Origin: Candidatus Dormiibacterota bacterium
GTDB taxonomy: Bacteria > Chloroflexota > Dormibacteria > Aeolococcales > Aeolococcaceae
Assembly: GCA_963709585.1 (NCBI GenBank)
Contig: CAVPXI010000016.1
Coordinates: 96,001 to 160,000, forward strand
Reading direction: 5' to 3'
DNA length: 64,000 nucleotides
Shown here: positions 492 to 61,477 of the stretch, piece by piece
Layout of the letters: every line of letters starts with the position of its first letter
Position numbering within the stretch: the stretch's first letter is position 1
Translations under genes and position numbers: made by a program
The notes under the pieces: model-generated
What the model was told of the DNA's origin: nothing
Seen by the model: only the letters and a program-made list of their open reading frames with translations
The model's database searches: none

Positions 492-983
492 GTGAGCCCG
501 CGCACGAGTCCGATCATCCGCCCGGCCGCTCGTGCGCTCATCGTTAATGCTGCGCAGCGCGTGCTGCTCTTCCGCGGCGAACTGCCCGGGCGTGAACCAT
601 GGTGGTTCGCTCCCGGCGGCGCGCTCGAGCAGGGCGATACGTTCGAGGCCGCGCTGGTGCGCGAAGTGGGGGAGGAGACCGGCCTCGTGGTCGATATCGA
701 CGCGGTCCGGGCACCGGTATGGACCCGCGACTTCCTGTTCACGTGGAAGGGCACACGGGAGCGCCATCTCGAACAATTCTTCCTGATCGTGGTCCCGGCG
801 CACGACGTGGACGCGAGTCGCTTCGAGGCCGCGGAGTCGGAGGTCATCAGAACTCATCGGTGGTGGAGCCTCGACGACATCAGGCGCAGCGCGGAACGCT
901 TTTCACCGGTGCGCCTGGGCGATCATCTGGCGCCGCTCCTGCAAGGCGCATTGCCGGGCCACCCGGTGGCAGTAGGGGAGTAG
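492..983 (+). CDS. NUDIX hydrolase
   Basis: Nudix box GGALEQGDTFEAALVREVGEETG. Confidence 0.9.
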   Translation: MSPRTSPIIRPAARALIVNAAQRVLLFRGELPGREPWWFAPGGALEQGDTFEAALVREVGEETGLVVDIDAVRAPVWTRDFLFTWKGTRERHLEQFFLIVVPAHDVDASRFEAAESEVIRTHRWWSLDDIRRSAERFSPVRLGDHLAPLLQGALPGHPVAVGE

Positions 984-986
984 TCC

Positions 987-3177: not shown

Positions 3178-3281
3178 GCAGGTCCAATGATGGCGCACCT
3201 TCAAAAATTGATAGCATCACTTGCATACGTGCTTATACCGCAACTGATACTAGCGAAGGTCATCGTGCCCGGACAGCGCTT

Positions 3282-5688
3282 GTGAGGGCGAATCCTCGCG
3301 CCACCTACCGGGTGCAACTGCGCGAGGAATTCGACTTCGACGCTGCCTCTGCCATCGTGCCGTACCTCGAGGAGTTGGGGATCTCGCACCTCTACTGCTC
3401 ACCGTACATGCAGGCGGCGGAGCACAGTGCTCACGGGTATGACGTCGTCGATCCGACGCGGGTGAGCAGGTCGCTCGGCGGAGAAACCGGGCTTCGTCGC
3501 CTCGATCACGCACTCAGGGCCGCGCAGATGGGGCAGCTCCTCGACATCGTGCCAAACCACATGTGCATCTCCGAGCGCGCGAACATTTGGTGGTGGGACG
3601 TCCTCCGCCGTGGGCGTGGCAGCCCGTACGCGCCGTTCTTTGACATCGATTGGGATGCGCCCGCGCTGCAGGGTCGCGTGCTGCTTCCCGTGCTCGGCGC
3701 GCCCCGAGCCGAGCTGCTCGCCGCCGGCGCACTGCAGGTCGTCAGGGGAGCGGACGACGACCTCGAACTGCACTACGAGGCACACTCGTTTCCGCTCGCG
3801 CCCGGTTCGGCCCTGACACCCGGACCGGTGTCGCTCGAGACCCTTGACGCGCAGCACTACATCCTCGAGGAACTCGGGGACGGGAGCGGCTCATGTCAAT
3901 TACCGCAGGTTCTTCGATGTCTCATCGCTGGCCGGCGTCTGCGTCGAGGTGGCTACCGTCTTCGACACCGTCCTCGCTCGCGCGCTCGAATTGGTCAAGG
4001 ACGGCAGCGTCGACGGGCTTCGCGTCGACCACATCGACGGGCTTCGTGACCCGGCCGCGTTCGCGTCCCGCCTGAGATCCCAGGCTCCGGCGGCCTGGCT
4101 GATCGTCGAGAAGATCCTTGCGACCGGGGAGCAGCTGCCGGTCGACTGGCCGATCGACGGGACCACCGGATACGAGTTCGGCGCCCTGCTGACGTCGCTC
4201 ATGGTCCATCCGGGGGGGCTCTCGGAACTCTCCGAGTGCTACCGCCAGTTCACCGGCGACGCCGGCGACTTTCCAGTCCATTCGCATCGATCCCGCAGCG
4301 AGGTGCTCGAGACCGTGCTGAGCGCCGAACTCAACCGGCTCAATCGCGTCGCTGCCGCAGCCGGAATTGACGATGCGCGGTCAGAACTCGTCGAACTCGT
4401 GGCGGGGATGCCGCGGTATCGGGTCTATCCGCGAGACGACGCCGCGCTCTCCATCGACGACGAGCGAGCGATTGCCGTTGCCGAGGAGTGGGCGCGGCAA
4501 TCCGGTCGTTGTGATGAGCAGCGCCTTGACGCCCTCCTCGCGGCGCTCCGGGGTGAGGACGAACGGTCGGCCGCGAGCGGCGAACTCCGCGTGCGCTTTC
4601 AGCAGGTTGCGAGCGCGGTCGTGGCGAAGGGGGTCGAGGACACCGCCTTCTACCGCTCTGTTCGCCTCGTCGCGCTCAACGAAGTCGGTTCCGACCCGGA
4701 GCGCACCACCAGGCTCGACGAGTTTCACGCGTCGTGCGCCCAGAACTCGAGCCGGCACCCGCTGACATTGCTGGCCACCACCACGCACGACACCAAGCGG
4801 GCGGAGGATGCGCGCCTGCGAGTCGGACTGCTCTCCGAGATGCCGCAGCGATGGCGCGATGCCGTCGCGCGTCTGGACGTCGTCGGCGCGCGTCACCGTG
4901 GCGCGCACCCGCCATCACGCGAAGCCGAATACCTCTTCTACCAGACCATGGTGGCTGCTCATCCGCTGGATGTGGATCGCGCATGGGCGTACATGCTCAA
5001 GGCAGCTCGTGAGGCAAAGCTCGAGACGAACTGGGTGGAGCCGAATCAGCACTATGAGGCGCATCTCGAGCATTTTGTGCGCGCCATGGTGGCCGATCCG
5101 GACGTGCAGGCGGTGATTGGTGAGGTGGTGGCGTCGATGACGCCGGAGTGGCAGACGCTGTCTCTCTCGCAGACGTTGATCAAGCTCACCGCCCCCGGCA
5201 TTCCGGACATCTATCAGGGTTCAGAGCTCTGGGACCAGCGACTCGTGGATCCCGACAATCGCGAGCCGGTTGATTACGAGGTCCGTCGCCGGTTGCTGCG
5301 CGTCGTGATGGCCGATCACGGCAGCTTCATGTCCCAACTCGCGGAAGGCGGTCCGAAGCTGCGCCTGATTGCGACCGCACTCGCGGTGCGAGCTCGCAAT
5401 CCCGAGGCATATGACATCGGCTCCGGATATCAGCGCGTGGTTGCGATCGGAGCGCGTGCGGATCACGCGATCTGTTTCGTCCGCACCCGTGCGGACGAGC
5501 GGCCGGTCACGGTGACGATCGCGTTCCGCTGGCCGCTTTTGCTCCGCCCCGGATGGCTGGAGACGCTGGTGCATCTTCCCCATGGCCGCTGGCGCGACGC
5601 ACTCACCGGACATGATGTGGGAGGCGGTGAGCAGCGCCTGGCGACATTGCTTGACGAAGCGCCCGTCGCGCTGCTGGAGCGCGCGTGA
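3282..5688 (+). CDS. treY: Malto-oligosyltrehalose synthase TreY (apparent +1 frameshift at 3870-3875)
   Basis: ATYRVQ, HGYDVVDP and DIVPNHM in ORF 3282; NYRRFFDV, GLRVDHIDGL, TTHDTKR and LVDPDNR in ORF 3844. Correcting GAACTC to GACTC joins the two. Confidence 0.92.
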
Positions 5689-5697
5689 CCGCCCGGA

Positions 5698-8130
5698 TCA
5701 GCGTAAAGGCGACGGCGGCGACGTGGCGTCGGGCTCCACCTGCCAGACCGGCAGCGTCAATGCGAACGAGGCACCGCCGCCGGGAGTCGATCGGGCAGTG
5801 ATGTCGCCGCCGTGGAGACGGGCCAGTTCGCGCGAGAGGTAGAGCCCCAGTCCGGTGCCGGAGATGTGACTGTTCTCAGCGGTCACGAGACGGCTGAATC
5901 GAGTGAACAGACGGTGCATCTGCTCTGGCGGGATGCCGAGGCCGTGATCGATGACAGCGACGCTCGCGATGCCTTGGCTCACGGTCGCGTGGCAGCTGAT
6001 CTCACCTCCATTTGGAGAGAACTTGACCGCGTTGTCGAGGAGATTCCTCAGGATCGTGTCGATCCTCCCCGCGTCGACATCGACGAGCACGCCGCTGTCC
6101 GGCAGGCGCACGTCGAGATGGTGGTGGGCGCTGAGCTGCGATTGGATCGCCGACGTCGCGGCGACGAGGATGTCTCGGAGGCTCTGGGGCTCGCGCTCGA
6201 GGCGGGTCACGCCCTCCTCGAGACGCGCGGTCTCGAGCATCTCGTTGACGAGCGCGTTCATGTCGTTGAGCTTTCGCTCGATAACCGGCATCGCGCGTTC
6301 GAGCCCGTCGTCGTCGAGCGACCCATCAGCCATCATGGAGAAATATCCGCGCACCACGGCGATGGGCCCGCGCAGCTCATGCGACGCAAGCTTGAGGAAA
6401 TCGGAGCGCATCTTCTCCATCGCGCGTGTGCGCTCGATGTGCTCGTGCAACCGCCGCGCCTCGGCATCACCGAGGGCGCGGATGCGTTCCTCGGAGGCCT
6501 TGATCTGCCAGACGAGTCCGGCGGCGAACGCGGCGAGCTGCAGCGTCCATGCGTCCTCATGGCTGAATCCCTCGGGTTTGATGGGTTCGTGGGCGGCGAG
6601 GACCCCGAGGCGCAGCGATCCGGCGCGCCATGCGACGGCCATCGTATCGGCGGCGGACATCGCGTGTTCCCGGTCCTGCACGCCCAAGCCGAGGTCCGCC
6701 GCACGCCCGCGAAACACCTCATCACCGAAGACGACGCGATCACGATCGGATGTGCCGGCGGGATCGCACGGCACCGCTCGCCACCGCTGGAACTCGGTCG
6801 CCGCGACACCGTGGGCGCCCGCCGCAGGGATCAACCTCGTGGCGTCGGTGCTGAGCCGCCAGAGCGTGACACGGCGTGCTCCCACGAGCTCTGCGACGGT
6901 CCCGGCGAAACGCGCGTACAGAGCGACGTCTGATGATGTCGCGTCCAGGTGATCGGAGACACTCAGGAGCGCGTGCAGGGCCTTCTGCTGTGCCTCCTTG
7001 GTCTCGGCAAACAGGCTCGCGTTGTGGAGCGCGAGGGCCGCGGAGAGTGCGATCTGTTCGAGGTTGTCCAGATCGAGCTGCGCGAATGGTTGGTCCGTGC
7101 GCCGGCTGACCGCGAGGATGCCGAGAACGCGGCCACCGGTTCTGAGCGGCAGGATCACGCGCGTGCGCACATCCGACAATTGCTCCTGCATATCGGGCGG
7201 CATGCCCGGCATGTCGGAAAAGCCTTCGAACGCCACTTCACCGCTGTCGATCCCGGCGCGGAGTTGGGGTGTGAGCTCCCACCTCGCGCCGATTCGCGCG
7301 GGCACGCGACCCTTGTCGTACCCCGCAATCGCCTCGATCGAATCCGCCTCGAACTTGGTCACGGTGATGCGGTCCACGTCGACCAGTTCGGCGATACGTT
7401 CGACGATCGCCTGGACCACCCGCGGGGGATCGAGAGACGAGGACAGCTCCCTGGTTGCCTCGCTCGTGAGGCGCAGTCGATCGACAAGGCGCTGGGTCGA
7501 CTCCCTCGCCTCGTCGCCGACCACCATGATGCTGATGAGCCGAGTGAAGCGATCCATGATGGCTCGCTCGGTATCGGTGAACGGTCGGGTCTCGGGACGC
7601 CAGAAACCGACGACCCCCATTCCGACGCGCCCGTCGGGGAGGGGCATCCCGGTGGCCATCGGCACCAACCGTCCGATGCGAATGTCGGTGCCGAAGACCT
7701 CCGGCGCGGCGCTCTCCTGGGGAGCGTTGGCGGTCTCGATGGGAACGCGATACAGCATCGCCCGGCCGTGCAGCATGCCCTCGTGCAGGGGCCACTCCTC
7801 GCCGATGAGGCTCTCGGCCCAGGGACCCGACGCAGCGACGACCTGAAACACGTCCGGTCGTGTGGCCGGCACGACCGAGATGACGCACTCGGTATGGGGG
7901 ACGACGCGAGTGCCCTCGGTCGCCATCGTCTGGAGCAGGTCCCGCAGCGGGACGATCTCGCGGGGATCCGTGGGGACTTCATCGAGAAGCCGCGCCACCA
8001 GGCGGCCGATCGCCTCATTGACGCTGGGAAGCTCCTCACCGGTGGGAGAGGGCCAGGATCGGGTCTCGACGACCCCGGAGGACGAGTGCTTCTGGCTCGC
8101 TTCGGGCACGGCTATACGATGCGGAGGCAC
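5698..8130 (-). CDS. Cytoplasmic multi-GAF sensor histidine kinase
   Basis: H-box ASHELRGP, N-box NLLDNAVKFS, DHGLG, GTGLGL. Three GAF-like segments, no transmembrane helix. Confidence 0.9.
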   Translation of the reverse strand: MPPHRIAVPEASQKHSSSGVVETRSWPSPTGEELPSVNEAIGRLVARLLDEVPTDPREIVPLRDLLQTMATEGTRVVPHTECVISVVPATRPDVFQVVAASGPWAESLIGEEWPLHEGMLHGRAMLYRVPIETANAPQESAAPEVFGTDIRIGRLVPMATGMPLPDGRVGMGVVGFWRPETRPFTDTERAIMDRFTRLISIMVVGDEARESTQRLVDRLRLTSEATRELSSSLDPPRVVQAIVERIAELVDVDRITVTKFEADSIEAIAGYDKGRVPARIGARWELTPQLRAGIDSGEVAFEGFSDMPGMPPDMQEQLSDVRTRVILPLRTGGRVLGILAVSRRTDQPFAQLDLDNLEQIALSAALALHNASLFAETKEAQQKALHALLSVSDHLDATSSDVALYARFAGTVAELVGARRVTLWRLSTDATRLIPAAGAHGVAATEFQRWRAVPCDPAGTSDRDRVVFGDEVFRGRAADLGLGVQDREHAMSAADTMAVAWRAGSLRLGVLAAHEPIKPEGFSHEDAWTLQLAAFAAGLVWQIKASEERIRALGDAEARRLHEHIERTRAMEKMRSDFLKLASHELRGPIAVVRGYFSMMADGSLDDDGLERAMPVIERKLNDMNALVNEMLETARLEEGVTRLEREPQSLRDILVAATSAIQSQLSAHHHLDVRLPDSGVLVDVDAGRIDTILRNLLDNAVKFSPNGGEISCHATVSQGIASVAVIDHGLGIPPEQMHRLFTRFSRLVTAENSHISGTGLGLYLSRELARLHGGDITARSTPGGGASFALTLPVWQVEPDATSPPSPLR

Positions 8131-8153
8131 GTCATTTTGATGATAGTGACTAT

Positions 8154-8185
8154 ATCACTCAAGATCGAAATCACTCCAGATCGAA
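8154..8185. repeat. 16-bp tandem direct repeat in an AT-rich divergent promoter region
   Basis: ATCACTCAAGATCGAA (8154-8169) followed by ATCACTCCAGATCGAA (8170-8185), 15/16 identical. Confidence 0.75.
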
Positions 8186-8262
8186 CAATCCCTGGAAAGT
8201 GGATCGTGCAATCACCTATGATACACTATGGATACCATGTTAGATGATAGCGTGGCTGCAAC

Positions 8263-9507
8263 TTGACCACGTCTCCGTCCAGGCGAGTCGCATCCTCCTC
8301 AGCCGGTCGAGGGAGCACGGGCAAGAACCACGCCGCGCAGCGAACAGCTCGAACGGCGACCGCGCGCCGGCCGGGGAGTCAGCGGCTGTGCGAAACGCCG
8401 TCGGTGAGAGCGCTGATGTGGCTGGCCATCATCCTCGCGGTCATCTGGATATTCGAAGGGGCGGCGTTCATCCTCGTACATGTCTTCAATGTGCTCCTGC
8501 TCTTCGTCTTTGCGGGAATCGTCGCGCTCCTCCTGACGCCGCTTGTGGACCGGATCGAGCGCGTCAGGCCCTTTCGCGGACATCGGTCCTTCACCGTTCT
8601 CCTGATCTACGCGATTGGCCTTGGGATCGTTGCCGGCGCGATCATGCTGGTGCTCCCGACGGTTGTCGCGCAAGCGAAAGGAGTCCCCGGACTGCTGCAG
8701 ACCGTCGACCATCAGCTGCGCCAGCACGGCATCTCCTTCTCGTTCGCCTCGCTGATCAACGCGGTGAACGGGCAACAACTCGGCGTGGCACTCGGCGTTG
8801 CGGCGGCCTTCGTGTCGGGGCTGGTCAGCGTGGTGCTGGTCCTGGTCATCTCCATCTATCTCCTGATCGAAGGTCACGCCGTCATCGCAACTGCGCGCAA
8901 CGTCTTCCCGAATCGACAGCGCGAGTTCGACTTCGTTGCGCTCGCGGTTGGGTCGACCGTGGCGGCGTATGTGCGCGGACAGATCGTGATGTCATTCGTC
9001 ATCGGCACCTATACAGGCGTGGCTCTGACCATCGCCGGCGTCCGGTACGCGATTCTGCTCGGGATCCTCGCCTTCTTCCTCGAGTTCATCCCCATCGTCG
9101 GTGCGGTCGCCGCCATGGTCCTCGCCGTCGCCGTGGCCCTGGTGCAAAGCCCGGTGCTCGCGCTCGTCGCCGCTGCGATCGGCCTGCTGGGGCATGCCAT
9201 CGACGCGTACCTTCTGGGTCCGCGCGTGTACGGGCGTGTCACGCGGCTTCACGCACTGGTGGCGATGGCGGCACTGCTGGTCGGCGCGGAGCTGGCCGGA
9301 GTGCTCGGTGCTCTCTTCGCTGTGCCCGTCGCCGCAGTCGGCAACATCTTCCTGGGAGCGCTCTATCGCGCTCGCCGCGGAGAAACACCAATGAGCACCG
9401 CCGCGGATGACGAGGTGAGTGTGGAGACGCTGCCCCGCCTGGGGGAAGAGGTCAGTGCGGTCGAGGACGAGGGCGTGAACCGAAAGCCGGTGCCCCACAG
9501 CGCCTAG
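8263..9507 (+). CDS. AI-2E family transporter (start uncertain)
   Basis: Multi-TM protein with YVRGQ, FIPIVG and GALFAVP motifs. Confidence 0.88.
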   Translation: MTTSPSRRVASSSAGRGSTGKNHAAQRTARTATARRPGSQRLCETPSVRALMWLAIILAVIWIFEGAAFILVHVFNVLLLFVFAGIVALLLTPLVDRIERVRPFRGHRSFTVLLIYAIGLGIVAGAIMLVLPTVVAQAKGVPGLLQTVDHQLRQHGISFSFASLINAVNGQQLGVALGVAAAFVSGLVSVVLVLVISIYLLIEGHAVIATARNVFPNRQREFDFVALAVGSTVAAYVRGQIVMSFVIGTYTGVALTIAGVRYAILLGILAFFLEFIPIVGAVAAMVLAVAVALVQSPVLALVAAAIGLLGHAIDAYLLGPRVYGRVTRLHALVAMAALLVGAELAGVLGALFAVPVAAVGNIFLGALYRARRGETPMSTAADDEVSVETLPRLGEEVSAVEDEGVNRKPVPHSA

Positions 9508-9546
9508 CCTGATGACCAGCGAGACGACGACGGATCGAGGGTGAGC

Positions 9547-9954
9547 TCAGCGGGGCGTATCGGCCGACGGGATCGCCGGCGATTCGCGTGACCGCTCGAC
9601 CTTCGTGGACAGCTGCGCAGGTGTCGTGTCCGCCTTGACCAGGAACTCGAGGGCCCCGAGCTTCAGGCCACGCTCGCGCAACTCGGGCTCGCCGTAGTTG
9701 CTGAGAATGATCACCGGGATGTGGGTTGTCGCCGGGTCTCCCCGGAGCCGCTCGAGCACCTCGAACCCGTCGAGGCCGGGCAGGCGGAGGTCGAGATAGA
9801 TGAAGTCCGGCACCTCTTCGTTGGCCATCCGCAGACCTTCCTCGCCGTCGCGTGCGACCACCACGTTGTAGCCATCCGCCGCGAGCCGCAGGCGGTACAT
9901 TTCCGCGGCTGCGGTGTCGTCCTCGATCAACAGAACCTTGACGTCATCGTCCAC
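9547..9954 (-). CDS. Single-domain response regulator (receiver only)
   Basis: LLIEDD, IYLDLRLP, ILSN, LVK. GTG start behind a GAGGAGGAAG RBS. Confidence 0.9.
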   Translation of the reverse strand: MDDDVKVLLIEDDTAAAEMYRLRLAADGYNVVVARDGEEGLRMANEEVPDFIYLDLRLPGLDGFEVLERLRGDPATTHIPVIILSNYGEPELRERGLKLGALEFLVKADTTPAQLSTKVERSRESPAIPSADTPR

Positions 9955-10076
9955 AAAGCTTCCTCCTCTGACACCCGCCATCGGTGAAAACCCCTGGCAT
10001 CCGGCTCCGCTTCGTTTCTCTGATTTTAGCGCTCCTGCGTCCTCGGGATATTGACACATGACGACTATAAGATTGC

Positions 10077-10106
10077 TTGACACTCCTTATGCCAAGCTGA
10101 TAGTCT
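10077..10106 (+). promoter_or_regulatory. Sigma70-type promoter TTGACA-N18-TAGTCT with extended -10 TG
   Basis: Perfect -35 at 10077-10082 and -10 at 10101-10106. Confidence 0.55.
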
Positions 10107-10112
10107 GCCTTG

Positions 10113-10192
10113 CGGTCGGAGAACGTCAATCACGCCTGAATTCCTCTCCCCAAAGCCCACCCCGCCGGGGGTCGCGCCCCCGGCGGGGTGGC
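10113..10192 (+). ncRNA. Candidate small RNA or structured leader (C-rich tract plus GC hairpin)
   Basis: TTCCTCTCCCC followed by the perfect stem CACCCCGCCGGGGG-TCGCG-CCCCCGGCGGGGTG, just downstream of the promoter. No U-tract. Confidence 0.35.
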
Positions 10193-10301
10193 ACCGTGCC
10201 GGGCAGATGCTAGGGGCTGGTGATGAGCGCGTTCTCGACGGCCGACACACGATATAGACTCCCACTCAATGATCGACAGCGCCCCCGGCTGAGCAGGCTC
10301 G

Positions 10302-10946
10302 ATGGCCATGCTTTCGGAGCGCCGGTCGGTGGCGCTGTCGGCGGCCCGAGCATCCGAACCGCATGACCGATGCCGATTCGGCCGCGATTTCGATCGGGCG
10401 ACTGTCGAATGCCCGGCGTTCCAGCGAGCCCAGTTCATCGCCGCAACCTCGTATGGAAAGCCGCTCGGTACACACGTGGCGTGCTCACACCTGCTGGTTG
10501 GCGAGCTCACCACGAACCAGTTCTACCCTCGCTGCTCACTCGGCTCCGATCTCGACAGGATGAGCTGGCTCGAAACCATGGGTCCCCGGCGGATCGAGGT
10601 GCTCAGGGCGCTCAACGCCGAGTTCGAGACGCTCTACCCCGATTCGCTCAGGCAGCTGGTTGCGGCCAAGGCAGTCGCGCTCGCCGGCCCCCCGGACGAC
10701 CGCCCGGGCCGCCTCGCGCTCGCCGCGGTGCTTCGAGAGTTCCTTGCGGAGTTCAGCGCGTTTGTGAACGCCAACGCGGACCGCATCGCCGAGATCGGCG
10801 TCTTGCCGACCGATCTGACCGTGCGCGCCGCGCGGGTGCTCGGCGAGTGGCAGCACAGTTCGCGGCTGGATCTGCCGGGACTCGACGAACAGTCGATTCT
10901 GCGACCCGAAAACCTCCGTGCTCTGCACGACGCGCGCCAGCGGTGA
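10302..10946 (+). CDS. Hypothetical protein with Cys-containing N-terminal domain and helical C-terminal domain
   Basis: CRF..CPAF..CSHL..CSLG. Its stop overlaps the GTG start of the MerR gene. Confidence 0.7.
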   Translation: MAMLSERRSVALSAARASEPHDRCRFGRDFDRATVECPAFQRAQFIAATSYGKPLGTHVACSHLLVGELTTNQFYPRCSLGSDLDRMSWLETMGPRRIEVLRALNAEFETLYPDSLRQLVAAKAVALAGPPDDRPGRLALAAVLREFLAEFSAFVNANADRIAEIGVLPTDLTVRAARVLGEWQHSSRLDLPGLDEQSILRPENLRALHDARQR

Positions 10947-11287
10947 GCCGGGCCGCCGCGTCGGCAGAACAGGCGAAGCTGTTGAACCTCGACAAGCCGT
11001 TGTACACGATCGGCATCACCGCGGAAATCCTCGCCACCCATACGCGCACGCTGATGATGTACGAGCATCTGGGCCTCGTCGTCCCCAGCCGAACCGCGAC
11101 CAACCGCCGCCTGTACTCGCAGCGCGACATCATCACGCTCGGAGCGATCCAGAGGCTGACTCGCGGCTACGGGCTCAATCTGATCAGTGCGCGCTATCTC
11201 ATCCACTGCCTGCAATTGCTCGACGCGCATGGAGTCCCGAGGCCGGCCGGCCTGACGGACATCGACGTGGAGCACGTGAAGGTCTGA
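10943..11287 (+). CDS. MerR-family (HspR-like) transcriptional regulator, copy 1
   Basis: PLYTIGITAEILATHTRTLMMYEHLGLVVPSRTATNRRLYSQRD. Confidence 0.88.
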   Translation: MSRAAASAEQAKLLNLDKPLYTIGITAEILATHTRTLMMYEHLGLVVPSRTATNRRLYSQRDIITLGAIQRLTRGYGLNLISARYLIHCLQLLDAHGVPRPAGLTDIDVEHVKV

Positions 11288-11303
11288 GGCTCGACGGGCG
11301 GGC

Positions 11304-12089
11304 CTACTGGGTGATGCGGTCCGAGCGGTCCCGAAACCGTGCCACAGCCTCGGAGATCGTTTCCTCGAGGTACTGGTAGAACACCCGGCGCTGGGAGATG
11401 TCGATCGCCGCCTCGACGTGGTGGCCTTCTCTGCGTCGCGCGATCCATGGGGGCACGCCGTCGGCGACCGCCTCGGTTCCCACCCGAACGTGCACGAGTG
11501 CGTCGTCGTCCTCCGCGACGTGCAGGGTCACGTTGAGGATGGGACCGGTGTGTTCGATGAGGCGCCAGCTGCGCTCCCATCGGGCGTTGCGGCGAACGTC
11601 GTGCGCGAGCCGCACAGCGTCGTCGACGAGGACGCTCTCGCCCGGCCGGGCCGTCCGAGCAAGCATCGTCCGGACGTTTTTGTCGATGTCACGGGCGATC
11701 CAGTCGACAAGCGACGGAGCGCGATCGTCGATGTCGGGACGACCGCTCTGATCCAGCGCCAGCTCACCGATCGCCTGCACAGTGCCTGCGTGCCGGCGGC
11801 AGTAGACGACGCCGCCGAGCGAGATGCCGTGCGCGGGACAGATCGTTGCCGGGCATGAGCGTTCGCGGCGGTCACGGTATGCACACAGCTGCGCGGTCAG
11901 GTTGCCGCAACCGCGCATCGTGCACGCAATTCCCGACGCGGGGCGAGCCGGATGCGGGGAGCGCTCTCCTCGGCGGAACAGTGCCGTTCCCGGCAAGGTT
12001 CCAAGGCGACGAAGCGCGCGCGTCTCCCTTCGGGGAGTCTCCGCAGTCGGCACGGCACAGTCCTCCATGTCCCTCTCGGGCGCCGTCAC
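11304..12089 (-). CDS. Hypothetical Cys/His-rich putative zinc-finger protein (paralog of 60738-61475)
   Basis: C-x4-C-x7-C-x9-C-x4-C-x2-H-x9-C-x2-H, plus RAPSLV, WERSW and VPPWI blocks shared with the paralog. Confidence 0.8.
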   Translation of the reverse strand: MTAPERDMEDCAVPTAETPRRETRALRRLGTLPGTALFRRGERSPHPARPASGIACTMRGCGNLTAQLCAYRDRRERSCPATICPAHGISLGGVVYCRRHAGTVQAIGELALDQSGRPDIDDRAPSLVDWIARDIDKNVRTMLARTARPGESVLVDDAVRLAHDVRRNARWERSWRLIEHTGPILNVTLHVAEDDDALVHVRVGTEAVADGVPPWIARRREGHHVEAAIDISQRRVFYQYLEETISEAVARFRDRSDRITQ

Positions 12090-12196
12090 CCTCGCCGGCG
12101 CCCCTGGCGTAATCAGACGCTACGGGCGGCTTCCGTGGCTTGGTGTGCGACGGCTTGCGATCCAGCGGTGACGTGGCGCAACGGCCATCGCTTGGA

Positions 12197-12577
12197 TTAT
12201 TCGGAGTCGGTGACGGACCTCGCCTTGAGCTCGTCGGCGCGCTCGTGCCAGAAGTCGAGGCGCCGCTCGAAGCGAGCTGCTTCGGCCATGAGGACCTTGA
12301 GGTCGGTGTCCTTGACCTCCGATTCCGCGTCGTCATTCATTGAGCTCAGCTGGCGCTCCGCGACCGCGAGGAGGCTGCGTTTGAAGTCGAGGAGCTCCGC
12401 GTAGACCTTGGTCCAGTGGACCGCATCGTCGACGTAGGCGGTGCGCTCGTCCTCGCCCTCGAGCAGACGTTCCGGCTCGACGGCGTCGAGCGCGGCTTCG
12501 CGTGCCTCCTGATGATCCGGGACGCGCTCCGCGCCCCGGTCCGCCCCTGAATCCTCCTGCGCTCCGGCGTCGTTCAC
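12197..12577 (-). CDS. Hypothetical acidic helical/coiled-coil protein
   Basis: LLEGEDERT..HWTKVYAELLDFKRSLL..RRLDFW. GTGA overlap with the upstream receiver gene. Confidence 0.7.
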   Translation of the reverse strand: MNDAGAQEDSGADRGAERVPDHQEAREAALDAVEPERLLEGEDERTAYVDDAVHWTKVYAELLDFKRSLLAVAERQLSSMNDDAESEVKDTDLKVLMAEAARFERRLDFWHERADELKARSVTDSE

Positions 12578-12957
12578 GACACCCATTTTCGCGTCGCTTC
12601 GGCGAGAAGTGCGGGCGGCGTGTGCGCCTTGATGAGGTAATCGTGCGCACCAAGCTCGCGACCGCGCTCGACCAGGTCGGGTTCGCTGTAGTTGGTGAGG
12701 ATGATCACTGGGATGGCGGCCGTACTCGGAGCGGCGCGGAGCTGCTCCAGGACGTCGAAACCGTGCATCTCCGGGAGGCCGAGATCGAGGTAGATCAGAT
12801 CGGGAGCGTCCGTGCTCGCACGCTCGATCGCCTCCGCGCCGGAGCCTGCTCGGATGACGTGGAATCCCTGAGCCTCGAGCTGCATCTCGTACATCGCGGC
12901 GACGTCCACGTCGTCGTCGACGAGCAGCAGCCGTATTCCCAGTGACCCATCAGGCAT
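12574..12957 (-). CDS. Single-domain response regulator
   Basis: LLVDDD, IYLDLGLP, ILTN, LIK. Overlaps the kinase stop. Confidence 0.88.
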   Translation of the reverse strand: MPDGSLGIRLLLVDDDVDVAAMYEMQLEAQGFHVIRAGSGAEAIERASTDAPDLIYLDLGLPEMHGFDVLEQLRAAPSTAAIPVIILTNYSEPDLVERGRELGAHDYLIKAHTPPALLAEATRKWVS

Positions 12958-14831
12958 GGACTCTCCCCGCTGGCCGGCTACGTCCGCGCGGCAGACGCAG
13001 CGTGAATGTACTCCCTTCGCCAGGCCGGGACTTGACCTCGATGTCCCCGCCCTCGGCCTGTGCCAGCGCGCGCGAGAGGTGCAGGCCAAGCCCGGTCCCT
13101 TGAATGCCGGCGGCGATCGCACTCTGGAGTCGTCCGAATGGTTGAAACAGCTTCGGCAGGTCTTCCTCGGCGATCCCGTCGCCGTGATCGGTGACGTCGA
13201 CGGCAACCCAGCCGGGCTCGTCACGAACCGCAATGGTGACGTCGGCGCTGTCGGGAGAGTACTTCAACGCATTTGACACGAGGTTGCCGAGGATCGTCGT
13301 CACCTGTTCGGGGTCCGCCCGAACCCGAATCCGTCCGGCCAACTCGACGTTGATCGTTCGCTTCGACCGGCCACCGGCCGGGACGCGTGCTGACGCCGCC
13401 ACGGCGCGTGCCAGCGCGTCCAAACCGACATCCTTGGCGTGCTGGCCGCGGGACCGAACCTCCATCCGGCTGGTGGTCAGCATCCGGTCGACGAGTTCGC
13501 TCATGTGACGCATCCGCGCCGTCATCAGGGGAACCACCTTGGCGATCGCTTGCGGTAATTCCCCGAGCGAGCCCTCCTCGAGCATCGAGAGATATCCGCT
13601 CACCAGCGTGATCGGGGCGCGCAGCTCGTGCGAGGCCAGCTGCAGGAATTCCGACTTCTGCCGCTCCAACTCAGCCATCCGCTGGGCGTGAGCCTCGAGG
13701 CGATCCAGCTCGGCGGCCTGGAGACCCTGGGCGCGCTGTTCCGCCGCATAGCCCTGCCAGACGAGTGCCGATGCGCGCGCGGCCAAGCCCATGATCCACT
13801 CATCCTGGTCGGAGAAGCCCGACTGCGAATTCCACGCGCCGAGAATTCCGAGGGGCACCGCGGCGGTACGCCATGGGACGGCGAGCACGTCCCTCGCGCC
13901 CAGGCGCGCGAGCACCGAGTCCGGACGCGTGACCTCCAAGGCATCGCCGTCGCCGAGCCTCAGCGCCTGACCCGAGACGAGGACACGCGCCAGAACCTCG
14001 TCGCCACTGGAATCGAGCCGCCCACGCGTTGGGGGACCCGATTGCTCCGTCGCGAAGGCGGATCCCTGGTGGAGCGGGACCAGTTCGGTGCCCGTGAGCT
14101 GCCAGAAACCAGCGCGCTCCGCGCCGACCAGGCGGGCGACAGTTTCGCTCATCTTTTCGAAGAAGGTCGCCGGGTCCAAACTCGAGGCGACGTGCCGCGA
14201 CATCTGCGTCAGTGAGTTCATGCCCGCGTCGCTGCGCGCTTCGGACCTCGTCCACAAGACGCGCGTTGCGCAGTGCGAGGACGGCGAGCAAGCCGACCTG
14301 CTGGAGCCCATCGAGCTCGTTCGCGACAAACGGCCGGTCACTTCGCCGGCTCAGGATCAGCACTGCCCCGACGGTCTCGCCCACGGACAGCGGCACGATC
14401 GCGGTATGGCGCATCGCCTTCAAAGCGGGCGTGATGTCGGGGTCAGAGGTGCCGCTTTCGGCGAGGCTGCCGCCCAGCACGATCGCGCCCGTGGTCACCG
14501 CCTGATACAGCAGCGGCTGCCTCGGCAACCAGGTCAGCGGATATTCGTGTCCGATGAAGTTGGGTGGCCCGCCGCGCTGATAGCTCGCCTCGACGCGGAG
14601 CACGTCCTGGTCGAGGCTCGTCAGGGTGCACCGGTCGACGTCGACGTTTTCGGCGGCGAAACGGACGAGGCGTCCCATGATCTGGTGCGGGTCGCCGAGG
14701 GAGACGACGTCCGCTTCGATCGACCTGGCGAAATTGGCCGTCGTCGGTGGGCGGGGATCGACGTCAGAGGCGGACGTGCTCGATGTCAATCCCGACAAGC
14801 TCCGGAGGCCGAGGGATGCCATGGGCGTCAA
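12950..14831 (-). CDS. GAF-GAF sensor histidine kinase (apparent frameshift at 14214-14219; start uncertain)
   Basis: GAF in ORF 13800-14831; second GAF, ASHELRAP, NLVSNALKYS and GTGLGL in ORF 12950-14341. Correcting GAGTTC to GAGTC joins them (..RRGHDSLTQM..). Confidence 0.85.
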
Positions 14832-15138
14832 GAAGTTGCAGACATTTGATGACGTATCGCGCCCCGGCGATGTTCAACCCGTACTGCCGGGTGAGCCGCT
14901 GAATCGCGCTCAGCGTGAGCAGGTCGCGTTGCGAGTACCGACGACGGTTCGTCGCGGTGCGCTCCGGCACACCGAGTCCCATGGTCTCGTACATCATCAG
15001 AGTCCGAGGGTGGCTCGCCAGGATCTCGGCGGCGACGCTGATCGTGTACAGCGGTTTGTCGAGATCGAGCATCTGCTCGGACGTGGGAACCATCATCTCA
15101 GCGGGCATCGGATCGAGTGAACCGCGCGCCCGGGACAC
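14764..15138 (-). CDS. MerR-family (HspR-like) transcriptional regulator, copy 2
   Basis: PLYTISVAAEILASHPRTLMMYETMGLGVPERTATNRRRYSQRD, highly similar to copy 1. Confidence 0.88.
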   Translation of the reverse strand: MSRARGSLDPMPAEMMVPTSEQMLDLDKPLYTISVAAEILASHPRTLMMYETMGLGVPERTATNRRRYSQRDLLTLSAIQRLTRQYGLNIAGARYVIKCLQLLDAHGIPRPPELVGIDIEHVRL

Positions 15139-15210
15139 TGCGACCGGCAGCGCGCAACCTGAGCAACACGACAGCGATTCTATACGTCAATCGCCGCGGC
15201 GCTCGAAGGG

Positions 15211-15414
15211 TCAGACGAAGCTCACGCTGGTCGCGGGGCGCTGGCGGAAGAACTGCACGCGGCAGTGGTCACAGCGGAAGACGAGGCGAAGTCCCATTCT
15301 CCCCAGCACCTCGGTGATCCGCGAGCTGCACTGCGGGCAGGTCGCAGCCTCGTCGAGGTAGGGGCCGACCACCGGCTTGACATCGAGCTGGATCGGCTTG
15401 TATCTGCGAGCCAT
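15211..15414 (-). CDS. Small zinc-ribbon protein (67 aa)
   Basis: CPQC-x18-CDHC, with a GGAGGT RBS before the ATG at 15414. Confidence 0.75.
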   Translation of the reverse strand: MARRYKPIQLDVKPVVGPYLDEAATCPQCSSRITEVLGRMGLRLVFRCDHCRVQFFRQRPATSVSFV

Positions 15415-15469
15415 CAAGTACCTCCAAAGTGCTGGGGTGGGTTCCCTGATCCCCACCGTCAAGAGCATC

Positions 15470-15505
15470 CTATCACAAAACGTGATAGTACCGTTATTGC
15501 TATCA
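15470..15505. promoter_or_regulatory. Overlapping inverted repeats in a divergent promoter region
   Basis: CTATCAC-AAAAC-GTGATAG (15470-15488) and TGATAG-N11-CTATCA (15483-15505). Confidence 0.55.
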
Positions 15506-15594
15506 TGGGATCGATGTCCGAAATGCTGTCCCGCGGCCGGGGAAAGACGGGTGGTGCGCCGATCCGGTCGCGATCCTTCAGACGGCGCCGGAGG

Positions 15595-15684
15595 ATGGAC
15601 CTCCGCACCGTTGCAACCGGTGCGGCGCTGTTCGTGGCGGCCGCCTGGACCATCATCTTCGGAGTGGGCGTGGTCCTCCGCTGA
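15595..15684 (+). CDS. Putative small single-TM protein
   Basis: MDLRTVATGAALFVAAAWTIIFGVGVVLR. Could start further upstream, before the RRRRR stretch. Confidence 0.4.
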   Translation: MDLRTVATGAALFVAAAWTIIFGVGVVLR

Positions 15685-15848
15685 CCCTGTCGCCGGCTCG
15701 AGCGTCGCGGCTGCCATCGACCGAACCGGCCGGCAGCGGTTGCAGCCGGGCTGGAGAACATATCGCGCTTCTGCCTGCTACCGTACAAAAGGCGGAAGTC
15801 AATTCTGGCCGAGGGAGCGCTGACTCCACCCGGCATGGAGGAGCAGTT

Positions 15849-16244
15849 TTGGAGGATGACGTCAAAGTCCTGCTGATCGAGGACGACGTCGCCGCCGCGG
15901 AGATGTACCGGCTCCGCCTGGCGGCCGACGGCTACTCGGTCGTGATCGCGCACGACGGCCAGGAAGGCCTGCGCATGGCAGCCGACGAAGCCCCAGACTT
16001 CATCTATCTCGATCTCCGCCTTCCCGGTCTCGATGGGTTCGAGGTGCTCGAGCGGCTCCGCGCCGGCATGGCGACGAGACACATCCCGGTGATCATCCTC
16101 TCCAACTACGGCGAGCCGGAGTTGCGGGAGCGTGGCATGAAGCTCGGTGTCCTGGAGTTCCTGGTCAAGGCTGACACCACCCCAGCCCAGCTCTCCGAGA
16201 GCGTCGAACGGGCGACCAGCCCGCGCGCACTGCCCTCAACCTGA
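15849..16244 (+). CDS. Single-domain response regulator (near-identical paralog of 9547-9954)
   Basis: DDVKVLLIEDD.AAAEMYRLRLAADGY..FIYLDLRLPGLDGFEVLERLR is shared with the paralog. GGAGGAG RBS. Confidence 0.9.
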   Translation: MEDDVKVLLIEDDVAAAEMYRLRLAADGYSVVIAHDGQEGLRMAADEAPDFIYLDLRLPGLDGFEVLERLRAGMATRHIPVIILSNYGEPELRERGMKLGVLEFLVKADTTPAQLSESVERATSPRALPST

Positions 16245-16262
16245 GGTCAGCGCGGCAACGCC

Positions 16263-17399
16263 GTGGCGGACCTGGCATCCACCTGGGATGATCCCGGGTC
16301 CGCCGACGACACGTCCCGCACGCTCCTCCTCGAGACGCTCAGGCTCGCCTCCCAGCTGGCCTCCGCACGCGGCCGCGAGCGCGAGGCGTCGCTGCTTCTG
16401 CTCCACAGCGATGTCCTGACCTGCGTCGCGGCGTCCGGGGTGGCGGGGAACGTGGGGCACGGGCCGTACCGCGTGACGGAGCATCCGGCGTACGAGCATG
16501 CGATGACCACCGGCGAGATCGTCGAAGACGCGTCACGCACCCTGTTTCCGGTGCGGGCGGCGGGCGATGTGACCGCGCTCCTGGTGATCGACGATGGAGA
16601 GGGGCTGGACGGCGAGCAACGAAGCAGTTTGACCTTGATCGCGCGCATCCTCGGCCTCGGCGTCGACCAGGCCGCGAGCATCGATGAGCTCCAACAGGAG
16701 GCGGAGCGCAGCCGCCGGCTCGAGCGGCTCAAGGGCGAGTTCCTGAACATCGCAGCTCACGAGTTGCGCAGCCCCCTCGGGATCATCCGGGGATATGCGT
16801 CCATGCTCAGTGAGGGAATGCTCGCGGAGCCGGATCGTGGCGTGGCGCTGACCCGGATCGGGGAGAAGACCGAGGAGATGGCGCGTCAGGTTTCCGAGAT
16901 GCTCGAGACCGCTCGCCTCGAGACGCTCGGCTTCGAGTTGCAGCTCGAACCGGTCGATCTCCTCGGGGTGGTCGACGACGCGGCGGAGGCGATGCGTCCG
17001 CTGTTCGGAGCCAACCACCGGTTCGTGGTCTCGGCGCCGCGCGACCCGATCGCGGTCGTCGCCGATCGGCGACGGCTGACGATGACGCTCACCAACCTCA
17101 TCGACAACGCGATCAAGTATTCGCCTGCGGGCGGGGAGATCGAGATCGGCTGTGAGCACGACGGCCGGGACGCCAGCATCTCGGTTCGCGACCATGGCAT
17201 CGGCATCAGCGCTGAGCAGGCCCACCTCCTCTTCACTCGATTTGGCCGCCTCGTCACGCCGGAGACGAGCCATATCCGGGGTACCGGGCTCGGCCTCTAT
17301 CTGGCCCGCGAGACCGCGCGCCTGCACGGGGGAGACATCGTGGTCACGTCAACGCCCGGGGGCGGCAGCACCTTCACGGTGATCCTGCCCCTCGCTTGA
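16263..17399 (+). CDS. Cytoplasmic sensor histidine kinase (degenerate GAF-like N-terminus)
   Basis: AAHELRSP, NLIDNAIKYS, DHGIG, GTGLGL. Confidence 0.9.
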   Translation: MADLASTWDDPGSADDTSRTLLLETLRLASQLASARGREREASLLLLHSDVLTCVAASGVAGNVGHGPYRVTEHPAYEHAMTTGEIVEDASRTLFPVRAAGDVTALLVIDDGEGLDGEQRSSLTLIARILGLGVDQAASIDELQQEAERSRRLERLKGEFLNIAAHELRSPLGIIRGYASMLSEGMLAEPDRGVALTRIGEKTEEMARQVSEMLETARLETLGFELQLEPVDLLGVVDDAAEAMRPLFGANHRFVVSAPRDPIAVVADRRRLTMTLTNLIDNAIKYSPAGGEIEIGCEHDGRDASISVRDHGIGISAEQAHLLFTRFGRLVTPETSHIRGTGLGLYLARETARLHGGDIVVTSTPGGGSTFTVILPLA

Positions 17400-17403
17400 G
17401 CGG

Positions 17404-17454
17404 AAAAGCAAAAAGTCCACCCCGCGCCGTGGACGTTGGCCGGCGGGATGGACT
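17404..17454 (-). terminator. Rho-independent terminator
   Basis: Stem AGUCCAUCCCG...CGGGGUGGACU followed by UUUUGCUUUU. Confidence 0.75.
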
Positions 17455-17498
17455 CTGCTGGGAGGGGGGTGGGGGACGGCGATCACCCGACCGCCGAC
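17404..17498 (-). ncRNA. Candidate C-rich small RNA with its own promoter and intrinsic terminator
   Basis: TTGACA (17534-17529)-N18-TAAGCT (17510-17505), then a 5' hairpin CGGCGGUC/GAUCGCCG, an unpaired CCCCCACCCCCCUCCC tract and a terminator stem plus U-tract. Confidence 0.55.
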
Positions 17499-17580
17499 CC
17501 TACGAGCTTAGTGATCCGTACCCCAGCCTGTCAAATTAGTGGGTAGCCGGGTTATACAGTTTTGTCGACCTTGTGGCAAC

Positions 17581-18087
17581 TCACGAGTTGTCCGCGACGT
17601 ACTCATCGGGATCCCTGTCCTCGATGCTGATGCCGCGGGCGCCCGCATGCTCGGTCTCGAAGGAAGCGAACGCTGAAGCCACCTCCGCCTGCTCGTCGGA
17701 CGAGGCGGCATCGTCGAACTCGATGAGCGGGCCCTGCTCCTCTTCGTACATGTGCTCGGTGTTGGCGTGCTCGGTGGCGTTGACGGCCTCCCACCAGGCG
17801 GCTTCGCCGATCCGCTGACCCTCGGCGTCGCGGATCGCGTCGCGAATCTCATTGTGGTCCCGGATGGCGTCCTTGGTGTCATCGGTCGCGTCGGAGTCGT
17901 CCTTGAGCAGCCGAGGATAGAAGAGCGCCTCCTCCGCCGCCGCATGGACCTCGAGCCGGGCCGAGAGCGCGGCCCACAGGGACGCGATTGTCCCAGCATC
18001 GTCCCGCGCGGCTTGCAGCGCCGCGAACTGGCTGCGGAACCAGATGTGGTCAAGGCGGATGAGGTCGGTGACCCGGGTGGTTTGCAT
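17581..18087 (-). CDS. Hemerythrin/HHE domain protein
   Basis: DH..., LEVHAAAEEALFYP, DHNEIR, EHMYEEE. Confidence 0.85.
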   Translation of the reverse strand: MQTTRVTDLIRLDHIWFRSQFAALQAARDDAGTIASLWAALSARLEVHAAAEEALFYPRLLKDDSDATDDTKDAIRDHNEIRDAIRDAEGQRIGEAAWWEAVNATEHANTEHMYEEEQGPLIEFDDAASSDEQAEVASAFASFETEHAGARGISIEDRDPDEYVADNS

Positions 18088-18163
18088 GAAGGCCGATATT
18101 CCTGACAGCGACCATATCAGATAGACGCCCATAATCAGGTACAAGTGAGCCAGACTCACTGCC

Positions 18164-18316
18164 ATGAACATCCCGATGACCCCTACGCCGATGCCCCCGC
18201 GTGAGCCGGACCCCGAGCCGGAGATCAAGGAGCCCGATCCCGAGATGCCGGAGGTTCCGGACCCTGACCGATCGGCCGAGACCGACGCGCCCGAAACCCG
18301 CCCCGAGCAGGAGTAA
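18164..18316 (+). CDS. Putative small Pro/Glu-rich acidic protein (50 aa)
   Basis: MNIPMTPTPMPPREPDPEPEIKEPDPEMPEVPDPDRSAETDAPETRPEQE. Fills the intergenic gap and is below the ORF track cutoff. Confidence 0.5.
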   Translation: MNIPMTPTPMPPREPDPEPEIKEPDPEMPEVPDPDRSAETDAPETRPEQE

Positions 18317-18368
18317 GCGCGTCTCGCGCGATCGAAGCCGTCGAGCGCGCTCAGGGTACGAGCCGCGG

Positions 18369-60737: not shown

Positions 60738-61475
60738 ATGGCCGCGGTTCGCGCGCAGCCAACCGATGCTAATGTGGATCGGCCGATGTCCACAGAGTCC
60801 AAGCACCCCTGCACCCAGGGCGGCTGCACGTCCCAGGACGGCGCGCCGTGCGAATACGTTGATCGCCGCGGACGCGAATGCCGCACCGCGTGGTGCATCG
60901 AGCATCGCGTGACCATCGAGGACCGGGTGTACTGCCGCCGTCACGCGGGAGTCGTCAGCGCACTGCCGAGCCTCGACAGCTCCCCGGCGGTATCCCTGCC
61001 CGACCTCGACAACCGTGCGCCGTCGCTGGTGGGTTGGGTGTCCCGGCAGATCGACGGCGACGTCTGGCGCCTCCTGCTCAAGGAGCTCGCGTCGGGCAGC
61101 GGCGGTCAGCTGATTGCCGACCCGGTGACGCTCGTCTTCGTGGGCATCGGCCGGCAGCGCGCGTGGGAGCGGTCCTGGCGGCTCGACAGCCACGTCGGCA
61201 TCGCCCACCGGGTGAGCATCCTGGTCGAGGAGATCGACGACACCATGATTACCGTCAAGGTCGGCGGGAACACGGTGGAGCAGCTCGTCCCACCCTGGAT
61301 TCAGCATCGGGTGCGCGGCGAGGCGGTCGGGCCGGATGAGGACCGCAAAGAGCGCGAAGAGTTCTATCAGCGCGTGCTCGATTCGATCGAGCGTGGCCTC
61401 GGACACGAGCGCGATCTTTCTCAGTACATGGCGGAGGGTCGCCTCGGCGCGCCACAGGGTGGGGCGGGGGGATAA
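60738..61475 (+). CDS. Hypothetical Cys/His-rich putative zinc-finger protein (paralog of 11304-12089)
   Basis: Same Cys/His spacing and the YCRRHAG, RAPSLV, WERSWRL and VPPWI blocks. Confidence 0.8.
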   Translation: MAAVRAQPTDANVDRPMSTESKHPCTQGGCTSQDGAPCEYVDRRGRECRTAWCIEHRVTIEDRVYCRRHAGVVSALPSLDSSPAVSLPDLDNRAPSLVGWVSRQIDGDVWRLLLKELASGSGGQLIADPVTLVFVGIGRQRAWERSWRLDSHVGIAHRVSILVEEIDDTMITVKVGGNTVEQLVPPWIQHRVRGEAVGPDEDRKEREEFYQRVLDSIERGLGHERDLSQYMAEGRLGAPQGGAGG

Positions 61476-61477
61476 GT

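Follow-up and report, generated by a model that had tools for sequence, protein, structure and literature searches.

A conserved, apparently self-regulated signalling island of mini-MerR regulators and stand-alone receivers in Dormibacteria

Dormibacteria are abundant, uncultured bacteria of soil and permafrost, and to our knowledge their regulation is essentially unknown. A stretch of 64,000 nucleotides from one of them, a Candidatus Dormiibacterota bacterium (hereafter the window: positions 96,001 to 160,000 of contig CAVPXI010000016.1, assembly GCA_963709585.1), holds at window positions 5698-17498 three soluble histidine kinases, three receivers without output domain, two MerR-type regulators and several small proteins without known family. 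Do these genes form one signalling system, and how would its receivers reach gene expression? A sequence-only reading of the locus had proposed an undescribed phosphorelay or partner-switching module with MerR and small-RNA outputs. Our analysis indicates that the cluster is a real, conserved and apparently self-regulated signalling island. Its logic is best captured by a two-component input that acts on a partner-controlled mini-MerR output, the contact between receiver and MerR being the inferred step. The explanation that we find best as a whole, and hold to be somewhat better than an even bet, is a self-regulating, genus-specific expansion of a class-wide module made of a mini-MerR and a receiver. 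In agreement with the claim of novelty, a superficial literature search returned no description of the cluster, of Dormibacteria regulators or of a pairing between receivers and HspR/MerR proteins. Genes of the window (66-67% GC) were picked by codon statistics together with Pfam and NCBIfam, 23 open reading frames (ORFs) being scanned with Pfam; the source assembly comprises 3.52 Mb in 24 contigs and is 88.8% complete.

The genes at the heart of the argument are MerRa (10943-11287, plus strand) and MerRb (14764-15108, minus strand), each encoding a mini-MerR of 114 amino acids (aa) of the HspR/GlnR-like kind. They are 71% identical and both match MerR_1 (PF13411), as their earlier description as very similar paralogs implied. 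About 15 or more residues precede the helix-turn-helix (HTH) and about 25 follow it; this C-terminal tail is conserved, with P101 and L104 nearly invariant. The label HspR-like, also given earlier, holds insofar as HspR is the best family model for MerRb (NF047375, 75.5 bits, E 2e-21), but the score lies below the curated equivalog cut-off of 105 bits. When a profile of 51 family members (A2) was compared with solved structures, GlnR and TnrA came closest (GlnR 4r4e, E 7e-13; 7tea, 3.7e-09; TnrA, 5.7e-06). According to a published account (PMC4335299), TnrA and GlnR are proteins of 110-135 aa with an N-terminal extension and no MerR coiled coil. They recognize TGTNA-N7-TNACA in promoters of optimal spacing, and other proteins switch them by binding to their flexible C-terminal tails. 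Measured against that account, the mini-MerRs are alike in size (~110-135 aa), winged HTH, short N-terminal extension, short conserved tail and lack of a ligand domain; alike, too, are the N7 inverted repeat (TATCA-N7-TGATA at the island), the normally spaced promoter of the Dormibacteria island and control by partner proteins, which is the mechanism that we propose here by inference. They differ in the half-site sequence, in their score against the curated TnrA model NF053740 (18.4 bits, far under the cut-off of 140) and in their surroundings: no glutamine synthetase gene occurs among the neighbours scanned, and receivers, u129 (a small acidic protein) and Zn ribbons stand there instead. By analogy, the mini-MerRs are better compared with the partner-controlled GlnR/TnrA and HspR than with ligand-binding MerRs. 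The likeness to GlnR/TnrA is a functional analogy; the proteins fit HspR and TnrA/GlnR alike only in part.

What recurs across the class is the neighbourhood of a mini-MerR and a receiver. We searched 250 genomes of the phylum-level group with MerRb. Strong matches (50-70% identity, 1-6 copies per genome) were found in 24 of the 26 genomes of families f1, f3, f4 and f5, and none in the single f2 genome; the other genomes nearly always contained one weak match each. Among the genomes counted are the unpublished G213, G078 and G266; no locus was fetched from them or from G337. From 18 of the strong-match genomes 20 core loci were fetched. A receiver 51-65% identical to RR1/RR3, the two near-identical receivers of the island, lies directly beside the MerR gene in 14 of the 18, and the adjacency spans four Dormibacteria families. 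The commonest arrangements are a MerR-receiver-MerR unit on one strand (L027-L031) and a receiver-MerR pair with a divergent MerR (L032-L034), while family f3 combines five MerR paralogs with two receivers in a 13-kb stretch. A wider set of 67 loci, those nearest to the MerR profile and nearly all from metagenome-assembled genomes titled Candidatus Dormibacteraeota, Dormiibacterota or Dormibacteria, shows a receiver within 4 kb of MerR in 39 cases. In a tree of 69 MerRs, all those of this genus form one clade (support 100/96) nested in the type found upstream of a receiver (support 100/99), so that the twin MerRs are read as a genus-level expansion that now sits beside the glgX/treY trehalose pathway. 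The module that would have been expanded consists of an HspR/GlnR-like MerR of ~110 aa without ligand domain and an adjacent receiver-only regulator, usually next to trehalose-synthesis genes. Duplication would have produced MerRa and MerRb, a third MerR copy that lies on another contig, and also RR1 and RR3; the three cytoplasmic GAF-type kinases, the third receiver, the Zn ribbons, u129, u261, u214 and the transporter would have joined this core.

The trehalose context is shared by many of these loci. The gene otsA falls inside the fetched stretch in 14 of the 20 core loci, at which Pfam confirms GT20, trehalose phosphatase, Holin-X and a class A penicillin-binding protein; the f3 loci add FtsH, YtxH and CsbD. 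The link to stress drawn in the sequence-only reading is thereby strengthened, as MerR-receiver-MerR adjoins otsA/otsB, Holin-X, YtxH and CsbD in other Dormibacteria genera. Because trehalose genes adjoin, the physiological theme is likely stress, desiccation or dormancy. Four f3 loci (L023-L026) pack five MerRs, two receivers, otsA/otsB, FtsH, YtxH and CsbD into ~15 kb, a denser stress locus than the present one. The genome studied here also has an otsA/Holin-X/small membrane ORF locus (C7:347042-350455), which is without the MerR-receiver-MerR unit of other genera, and no match to otsB was found in this 88.8%-complete assembly.

Outside the class the mini-MerR family is found in another company. 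HspR is modulated by its protein partner DnaK, and at 14 of 20 out-of-class loci with weak matches dnaK, grpE, dnaJ, clpB, lon or hsp20 adjoins the MerR homolog; no receiver was seen among the 64 flanking ORFs scanned there (174 called). Since these relatives are HspR-context genes, the Dormibacteria mini-MerRs appear to derive from HspR-type genes that left the chaperone context. They thus share with HspR the best family-model match and the context of their nearest out-of-class relatives, and differ from it in the sub-threshold score, in the absence of chaperone neighbours in this genome and in copy number (2-6 per genome in most sampled Dormibacteria versus one in other sampled genomes of the phylum). 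The earlier remark that the usual chaperone partners are missing was correct: the window contig has no HSP70 gene, the one in the genome lies on contig C4, and the ten MerR_1 matches of the genome are all found elsewhere, on C22, C6, C7, C14, C10, C16, C5 and C2.

This kinship could be taken to mean that no contact between receiver and MerR is involved. The mini-MerRs would then be HspR-like repressors working with a chaperone or another partner, the receivers would address unrelated targets or serve as phosphate sinks, and the neighbours would simply form one stress regulon. HspR is indeed the best-scoring model for MerRb, the out-of-class relatives are ordinary HspR genes in chaperone/protease operons, one MerR locus of this genome lacks a receiver and fused receiver-MerR forms were not found. 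Mere co-regulation accounts poorly, however, for tight one-strand MerR-receiver-MerR units in five genera of the family, with other adjacencies in f3, f4 and f5. In addition, the surroundings of dnaK in this genome are free of MerR genes, and none of the 14 genomic matches to the operator described below (up to two mismatches) falls on the dnaK contig C4, other chaperone genes not having been located. We therefore regard co-regulation without contact as an unlikely, if serious, alternative to the expanded receiver/mini-MerR module.

The second line of evidence for that module is a 19-bp dyad. Its perfect form, CTATCA-N7-TGATAG, lies at 15470-15488, 56 nt upstream of zr1, the first gene of the zr1-MerRb-HK2-RR2-u129-u261 string, and is the only perfect copy in the 3.52-Mb genome. 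Two copies are found when up to one mismatch is allowed and 14 with up to two; four of these 14 flank MerR genes, namely those at 8232 and 15470 and two around the third MerR locus on contig C7. The copy at 8232-8250 is worn (ATACCA-N7-TGATAG, 2 mismatches) and occupies the divergent region between HK1 and the transporter gene, where relatives have a site at the same position. A stricter pattern gave 6 matches in the genome as against 38 in 629 kb of sequence from 34 related loci, and 36 of the 38 belong to the 14 loci of this genus. The dyad recurs at four places: upstream of zr1, upstream of a second Zn-ribbon gene, in the RR1-u214 interval, and in the interval that separates HK1 from the MerR3/transporter operon. 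Near 15470 it is conserved in all 11 aligned intergenic regions of the genus. Between RR1 and u214 a conserved promoter-like block (10065-10104, plus strand) has a degenerate dyad, CTATAAG...CTGATAG, whose half-sites flank a conserved promoter-like site, TTGACA-16-GATAGT (10077-10104, 16-nt spacer); one promoter-like site was found in the block versus 0.1 expected. The dyad seems to differ from the inverted repeat associated with HspR. As the dyads overlap the promoters of the island itself, the island probably regulates itself through this shared, genome-specific element, to which the mini-MerRs would bind.

Two variants of this arrangement were encountered elsewhere. The third MerR locus (C7:361919-364280) has a 111-aa gene with a worn dyad on either side, divergent from MerRc; MerRc is 89% identical to MerRb and is followed by a 216-aa gene without assigned family and then by a u129 paralog, an order also seen in 16 of the 67 related loci. 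In family f3 a variant dyad, ATATCAG-N5-GTGATAA, lies 66 nt from one MerR.

We then considered how far the island holds together within the genus. Conservation of the gene neighbourhood had been named as one check of the earlier proposal, and the cluster proved to be present in all 14 loci (20 kb each) fetched around the 14 u214 matches. Ten of them are colinear from HK1 to HK3, and L016, a 6-kb contig, is colinear as far as it extends; L020-L022 are rearranged, with the components still together. Some relatives have features that the window lacks, such as a second Zn ribbon after u261 and, in three of them, a fourth MerR-like gene before the transporter. Relative to them the window appears to have lost these two genes as well as the STAS part of u214 and a gene for a MEDS+HATPase_c_2 protein, and comparison of the loci indicates that the kinases, u214 and the extra paralogs are an accretion at the level of the genus. 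Several genes are coupled by overlapping stop and start codons (u214-MerRa, HK2-RR2 and RR2-u129). One might see here no integrated system at all, just a chance pile-up in which two-component paralogs and small genes specific to the lineage are held in place by recent common descent. Much of the synteny is indeed confined to a single genus, u261 and u129 are multi-copy families, and the kinases are unlinked to the core in other genera. A chance assembly would not be expected to share a genome-specific dyad at four promoter positions, to show MerR-receiver adjacency in four families of the class and translationally coupled gene pairs, or to keep its components together in the rearranged loci L020-L022, and we consider it very unlikely.

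The input side of the island is of the two-component type. Pfam detects HisKA and HATPase_c at 5698-8109 (minus strand), 12950-14341 (minus) and 16263-17399 (plus), in accordance with the three soluble kinases announced earlier. HK1 (5698-8109, ~803-810 aa) is a cytoplasmic GAF-HisKA-HATPase_c kinase, syntenic in the genus loci, and HK3 (16263-17399) a cytoplasmic HisKA-HATPase_c kinase of 378 aa. No hydrophobic 19-residue window typical of transmembrane segments occurs in HK1-HK3 (maximum Kyte-Doolittle (KD) value 1.27-1.68). The motif FTRF.RLVT.E.SHI.GTGLGL, said to be common to two kinases, occurs at residue 742 of HK1 and at residue 324 of HK3, which are 46% identical across the catalytic core by pairwise BLAST. 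All three kinases have an H-box, SHELR or AHELR, located at residue 584 in HK1. HK2 (12950-14831, minus strand) is split by a 1-nt insertion near 14217. The additional base is missing in five relatives and in contigs of three sequencing runs from three studies, which lack it at 14217/14218. HK2 is therefore to be read as an intact GAF-GAF-HisKA-HATPase_c kinase, the frameshift being, on this comparison, an assembly error. Two other genes are split similarly. The dnaK gene is broken into two frames (C4:288606-290382); treY aligns with no more than positions 214-837 of the TIGR02401 model, which has 838 positions, and is preceded by a 255-aa ORF in another frame (3282-4049), so that the treY region (3282-5688) appears split, probably by another indel of the assembly. 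With HK2, dnaK and apparently treY split, we conclude that the assembly carries indel errors.

The three receivers are RR1 (9547-9954, minus strand, 135 aa), RR2 (12574-12957, minus, 127 aa) and RR3 (15849-16244, plus, 131 aa). Response_reg is the sole Pfam domain of all three. RR1 and RR3 are 82% identical and RR2 shares 48-50% with either (pairwise BLAST), so the earlier count of three output-less receivers, two of them near-identical, is accurate. D12, D13, D55 and K107 are invariant in the receiver alignment (A1). As had been noted, Pfam finds no DNA-binding response regulator on the contig. The phosphorelay then invoked gains no support: none of the 23 ORFs scanned has an Hpt or Spo0B-like phosphotransferase domain, although the small proteins of no known family might conceal one. 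With their HisKA/HATPase_c kinases, H-boxes and receivers that retain the two aspartates, the phosphoacceptor aspartate and the lysine without an output domain, these parts resemble single-domain systems of the CheY/DivK kind. They differ from them by the absence of chemotaxis, Hpt or cell-cycle partners, and their syntenic candidate target is a mini-MerR. Since the receivers lack an output domain, their output must run through protein contacts. Domain content is directly observed; the pairing of kinases with receivers is suggested by operon structure, HK3 starting 18 nt downstream of RR3 and RR2 starting within the end of HK2. Small contigs from one metatranscriptome run cover parts of RR1, u129, zr1, the small ORF upstream of RR3 and RR3 itself, a weak hint of expression that may also reflect DNA carry-over.

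Several small proteins accompany these parts. The gene preceding MerRa, u214 (10302-10946, plus strand), belongs to no known family and is present here in a short form, its stop overlapping the MerRa start. C24, C37, H58, C61 and C78 are invariant. Its predicted model is poor (predicted local distance difference test (pLDDT) 57, below 50 in the Cys-rich N-terminus), and the Atlas gave no usable match for u214. The gene occurs in 14 of 24 genomes of the genus and in none of 16 sister-family genomes. In nine of the 14 genus loci u214 carries a STAS domain (a separate 99-aa ORF in L019), and a MEDS+HATPase_c_2 gene stands between it and MerRa; the u214-STAS fusion and the kinase gene of L010 (7163-9090) and eight other loci thus look to have been gained or lost jointly, both being present in nine loci and neither in six, the window included. 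The relatives resemble RsbV/RsbW partner switching in this STAS fusion followed by a MEDS+HATPase_c_2 protein; they differ in that the ORFs scanned included neither a sigma factor nor a PP2C phosphatase and that the downstream gene is a MerR. At what we presume, from the SpoIIAA motif, to be the phosphorylatable Ser position, the STAS domain of the relatives has Val-Ala, and it may act as a non-phosphorylatable binder.

These relatives invite a different reading, in which partner switching is the main logic: the target of u214-STAS and the MEDS/RsbW-like kinase would be MerRa instead of a sigma factor, with the two-component parts feeding into this switch. The fixed order u214-STAS, MEDS+HATPase_c_2, MerRa in nine of 14 loci and the joint presence or absence of the two components agree with it. 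In the window, tblastn detects neither the STAS domain nor the kinase, so that the earlier suggestion of partner switching there fails. The short form is genuine, as contigs of three separate studies run unbroken across the junction of u214 and MerRa, and five relatives have it too. Given also that a PP2C phosphatase was absent from the ORFs scanned and that the module is confined to one genus, we hold partner switching to be a quite improbable main logic for the island, and return to the receiver/mini-MerR module.

Besides the receivers, zr1 and u129 are candidate partners of the mini-MerRs. The zr1 gene (15211-15414, minus strand) encodes a 67-aa Zn ribbon (CPQC...CDHC), and a Zn ribbon adjoins MerR in this genus and in family f4 (L035 and L037). 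The u129 gene (12197-12586, minus strand), whose start overlaps the RR2 stop, encodes a small acidic helical protein of no known family: 32 members gave no Pfam family at E < 0.009 and no PDB match. The family is present in 68 of 81 genomes of the class with 1-9 copies each, a tally that includes the unpublished G213 and G337. A u129-like gene lies within 4 kb of MerR in 41 of the 67 loci, 16 of which resemble the C7 locus, and at least four (L083, L084, L094 and L099) have a bicistronic MerR-u129 pair.

At the end of the string, u261 (11304-12089, minus strand) has an N-terminal Cys6His2 motif followed by an alpha+beta domain, and also lacks a known family. Homologs and Atlas clusters have so far appeared only in records labelled Dormibacterota. 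The residues C56, C61, C69, C79, C84, H87, C97 and H100 are invariant, a Cys6His2 pattern that makes two metal sites in the family likely. The predicted model of the alpha+beta domain (pLDDT 80.6) found nothing in the PDB at E <= 0.001 with Foldseek. A wide VIA-align search gave as best match the Fbxo7 FP domain (Z 7.2), with frataxin-like and type III secretion system chaperone-like alpha+beta folds also appearing; such scores are within the range of common arrangements, and we assign no function from the model. We rejected u261 as a dedicated component of the island, since its seven paralogs in this genome have unrelated neighbours and no consistent signalling context. One paralog, 39% identical, lies directly beside another receiver-only gene at window 60783-61867 (C16:156783-157867), with further response-regulator-like genes adjoining.

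The three Cys-rich proteins of the sequence-only reading were u214 and u261, which do carry the cysteines, and a 168-aa ORF at 15211, which is over-extended: only its last 67 codons, the Zn ribbon, are kept in relatives, and its upstream half overlaps the intergenic operator and, on the opposite strand, a 56-aa membrane ORF. That reading also missed this membrane ORF and the AI-2E transporter. Its gene content was otherwise largely right, the 15211 ORF, HK2, the transporter and the small ORF being the points in need of correction.

From these elements we propose the following circuit. Cues in the cytoplasm would be sensed by the GAF kinases, which would then phosphorylate the stand-alone receivers. 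The mini-MerRs would bind the 19-bp dyads, which overlap core elements of the island's divergent promoters, and would be switched by partner proteins, not small ligands, through their conserved C-terminal tails. Gene order suggests this switching and designates phosphorylated receivers, u129 and the Zn ribbon as syntenic candidates for the partner. A more specific version treats the receivers as effector subunits of a split response regulator: phosphorylated RR1/RR3 would dock on the mini-MerR tail and switch dimerization and DNA binding, with u129 and the Zn ribbon as further tail-binding modulators, which would amount to a MerR-based output class specific to Dormibacteria and tied to trehalose/dormancy genes. 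We put this version forward tentatively, as a rather doubtful one.

Several observations weigh against the proposed circuit. There is no direct evidence for any of its protein contacts, and a search of proteins of 201-2000 aa found no fusion of a receiver with a MerR, in itself weak evidence. Receiver adjacency is missing in the loci of four of the 18 genomes, and the third MerR locus of this genome, on C7, has u129 without a receiver. In most other genera the MerR-receiver unit has no kinase closer than 10 kb, the exception being L039, with a receiver, MerR, PAS kinase and glgX in a row. The dyad is well defined in this genus only, with the variant in f3, and no exact dyad common to other genera was found enriched. 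The glgX/treY promoter of the window has no dyad with up to three mismatches, so that control of the trehalose genes is conjecture. Finally, u129 and u261 are lineage families scattered in many copies over the genome. Outside the class, one locus (L060, G056:C164:1207-2409) has a 400-aa open frame with a MerR domain at its end that shares 52% identity with MerRb; its N-terminal 300 residues have no Pfam match, and it may be an over-extended ORF.

If the circuit is real, the principle of GlnR/TnrA, a MerR-like DNA binder switched by proteins, would extend to two-component signalling. The conserved pairing of receiver and mini-MerR by trehalose genes provides a testable circuit for entering and leaving stress-tolerant states, which comes with a defined operator, kinases and candidate partners; being small soluble proteins, its parts can be tested in vitro without culturing.

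The small-RNA output of the sequence-only reading comes down to one candidate element of two. A C-rich tract with a 14-bp GC hairpin lies at 10141-10192 (plus strand), 5' of u214. It is kept in 11 of 15 genus sequences although its flanks vary; the second candidate was not identifiable. The element is single-copy in the genome. Its main stem is invariant across the genus sequences, so covariation is uninformative. Rfam gave no credible match in 5000-19000 (two matches at E 0.4-0.9, far under gathering scores), and contigs from RNA runs did not cover 10028-11083, which is not evidence of absence. Its place after the promoter-like site and before u214 would suit either a leader or a small RNA.

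The remaining genes frame the island. A glgX-like gene (880-3204, minus strand) and treY (3844-5688, plus strand) precede it. Between HK1 and RR1 is a gene for an AI-2E family (PerM-like) membrane transporter (8416-9507, plus strand, frame open from 8263; PF01594, E 5e-45). The 56-aa ORF (15514-15684, plus strand), with an Arg-rich N-terminus and one hydrophobic helix, is conserved upstream of RR3, and small ORFs resembling it are divergent from MerR in other genera. At the far edge, a hemerythrin-domain protein gene (17581-18087, minus strand) is a conserved neighbour convergent with HK3.

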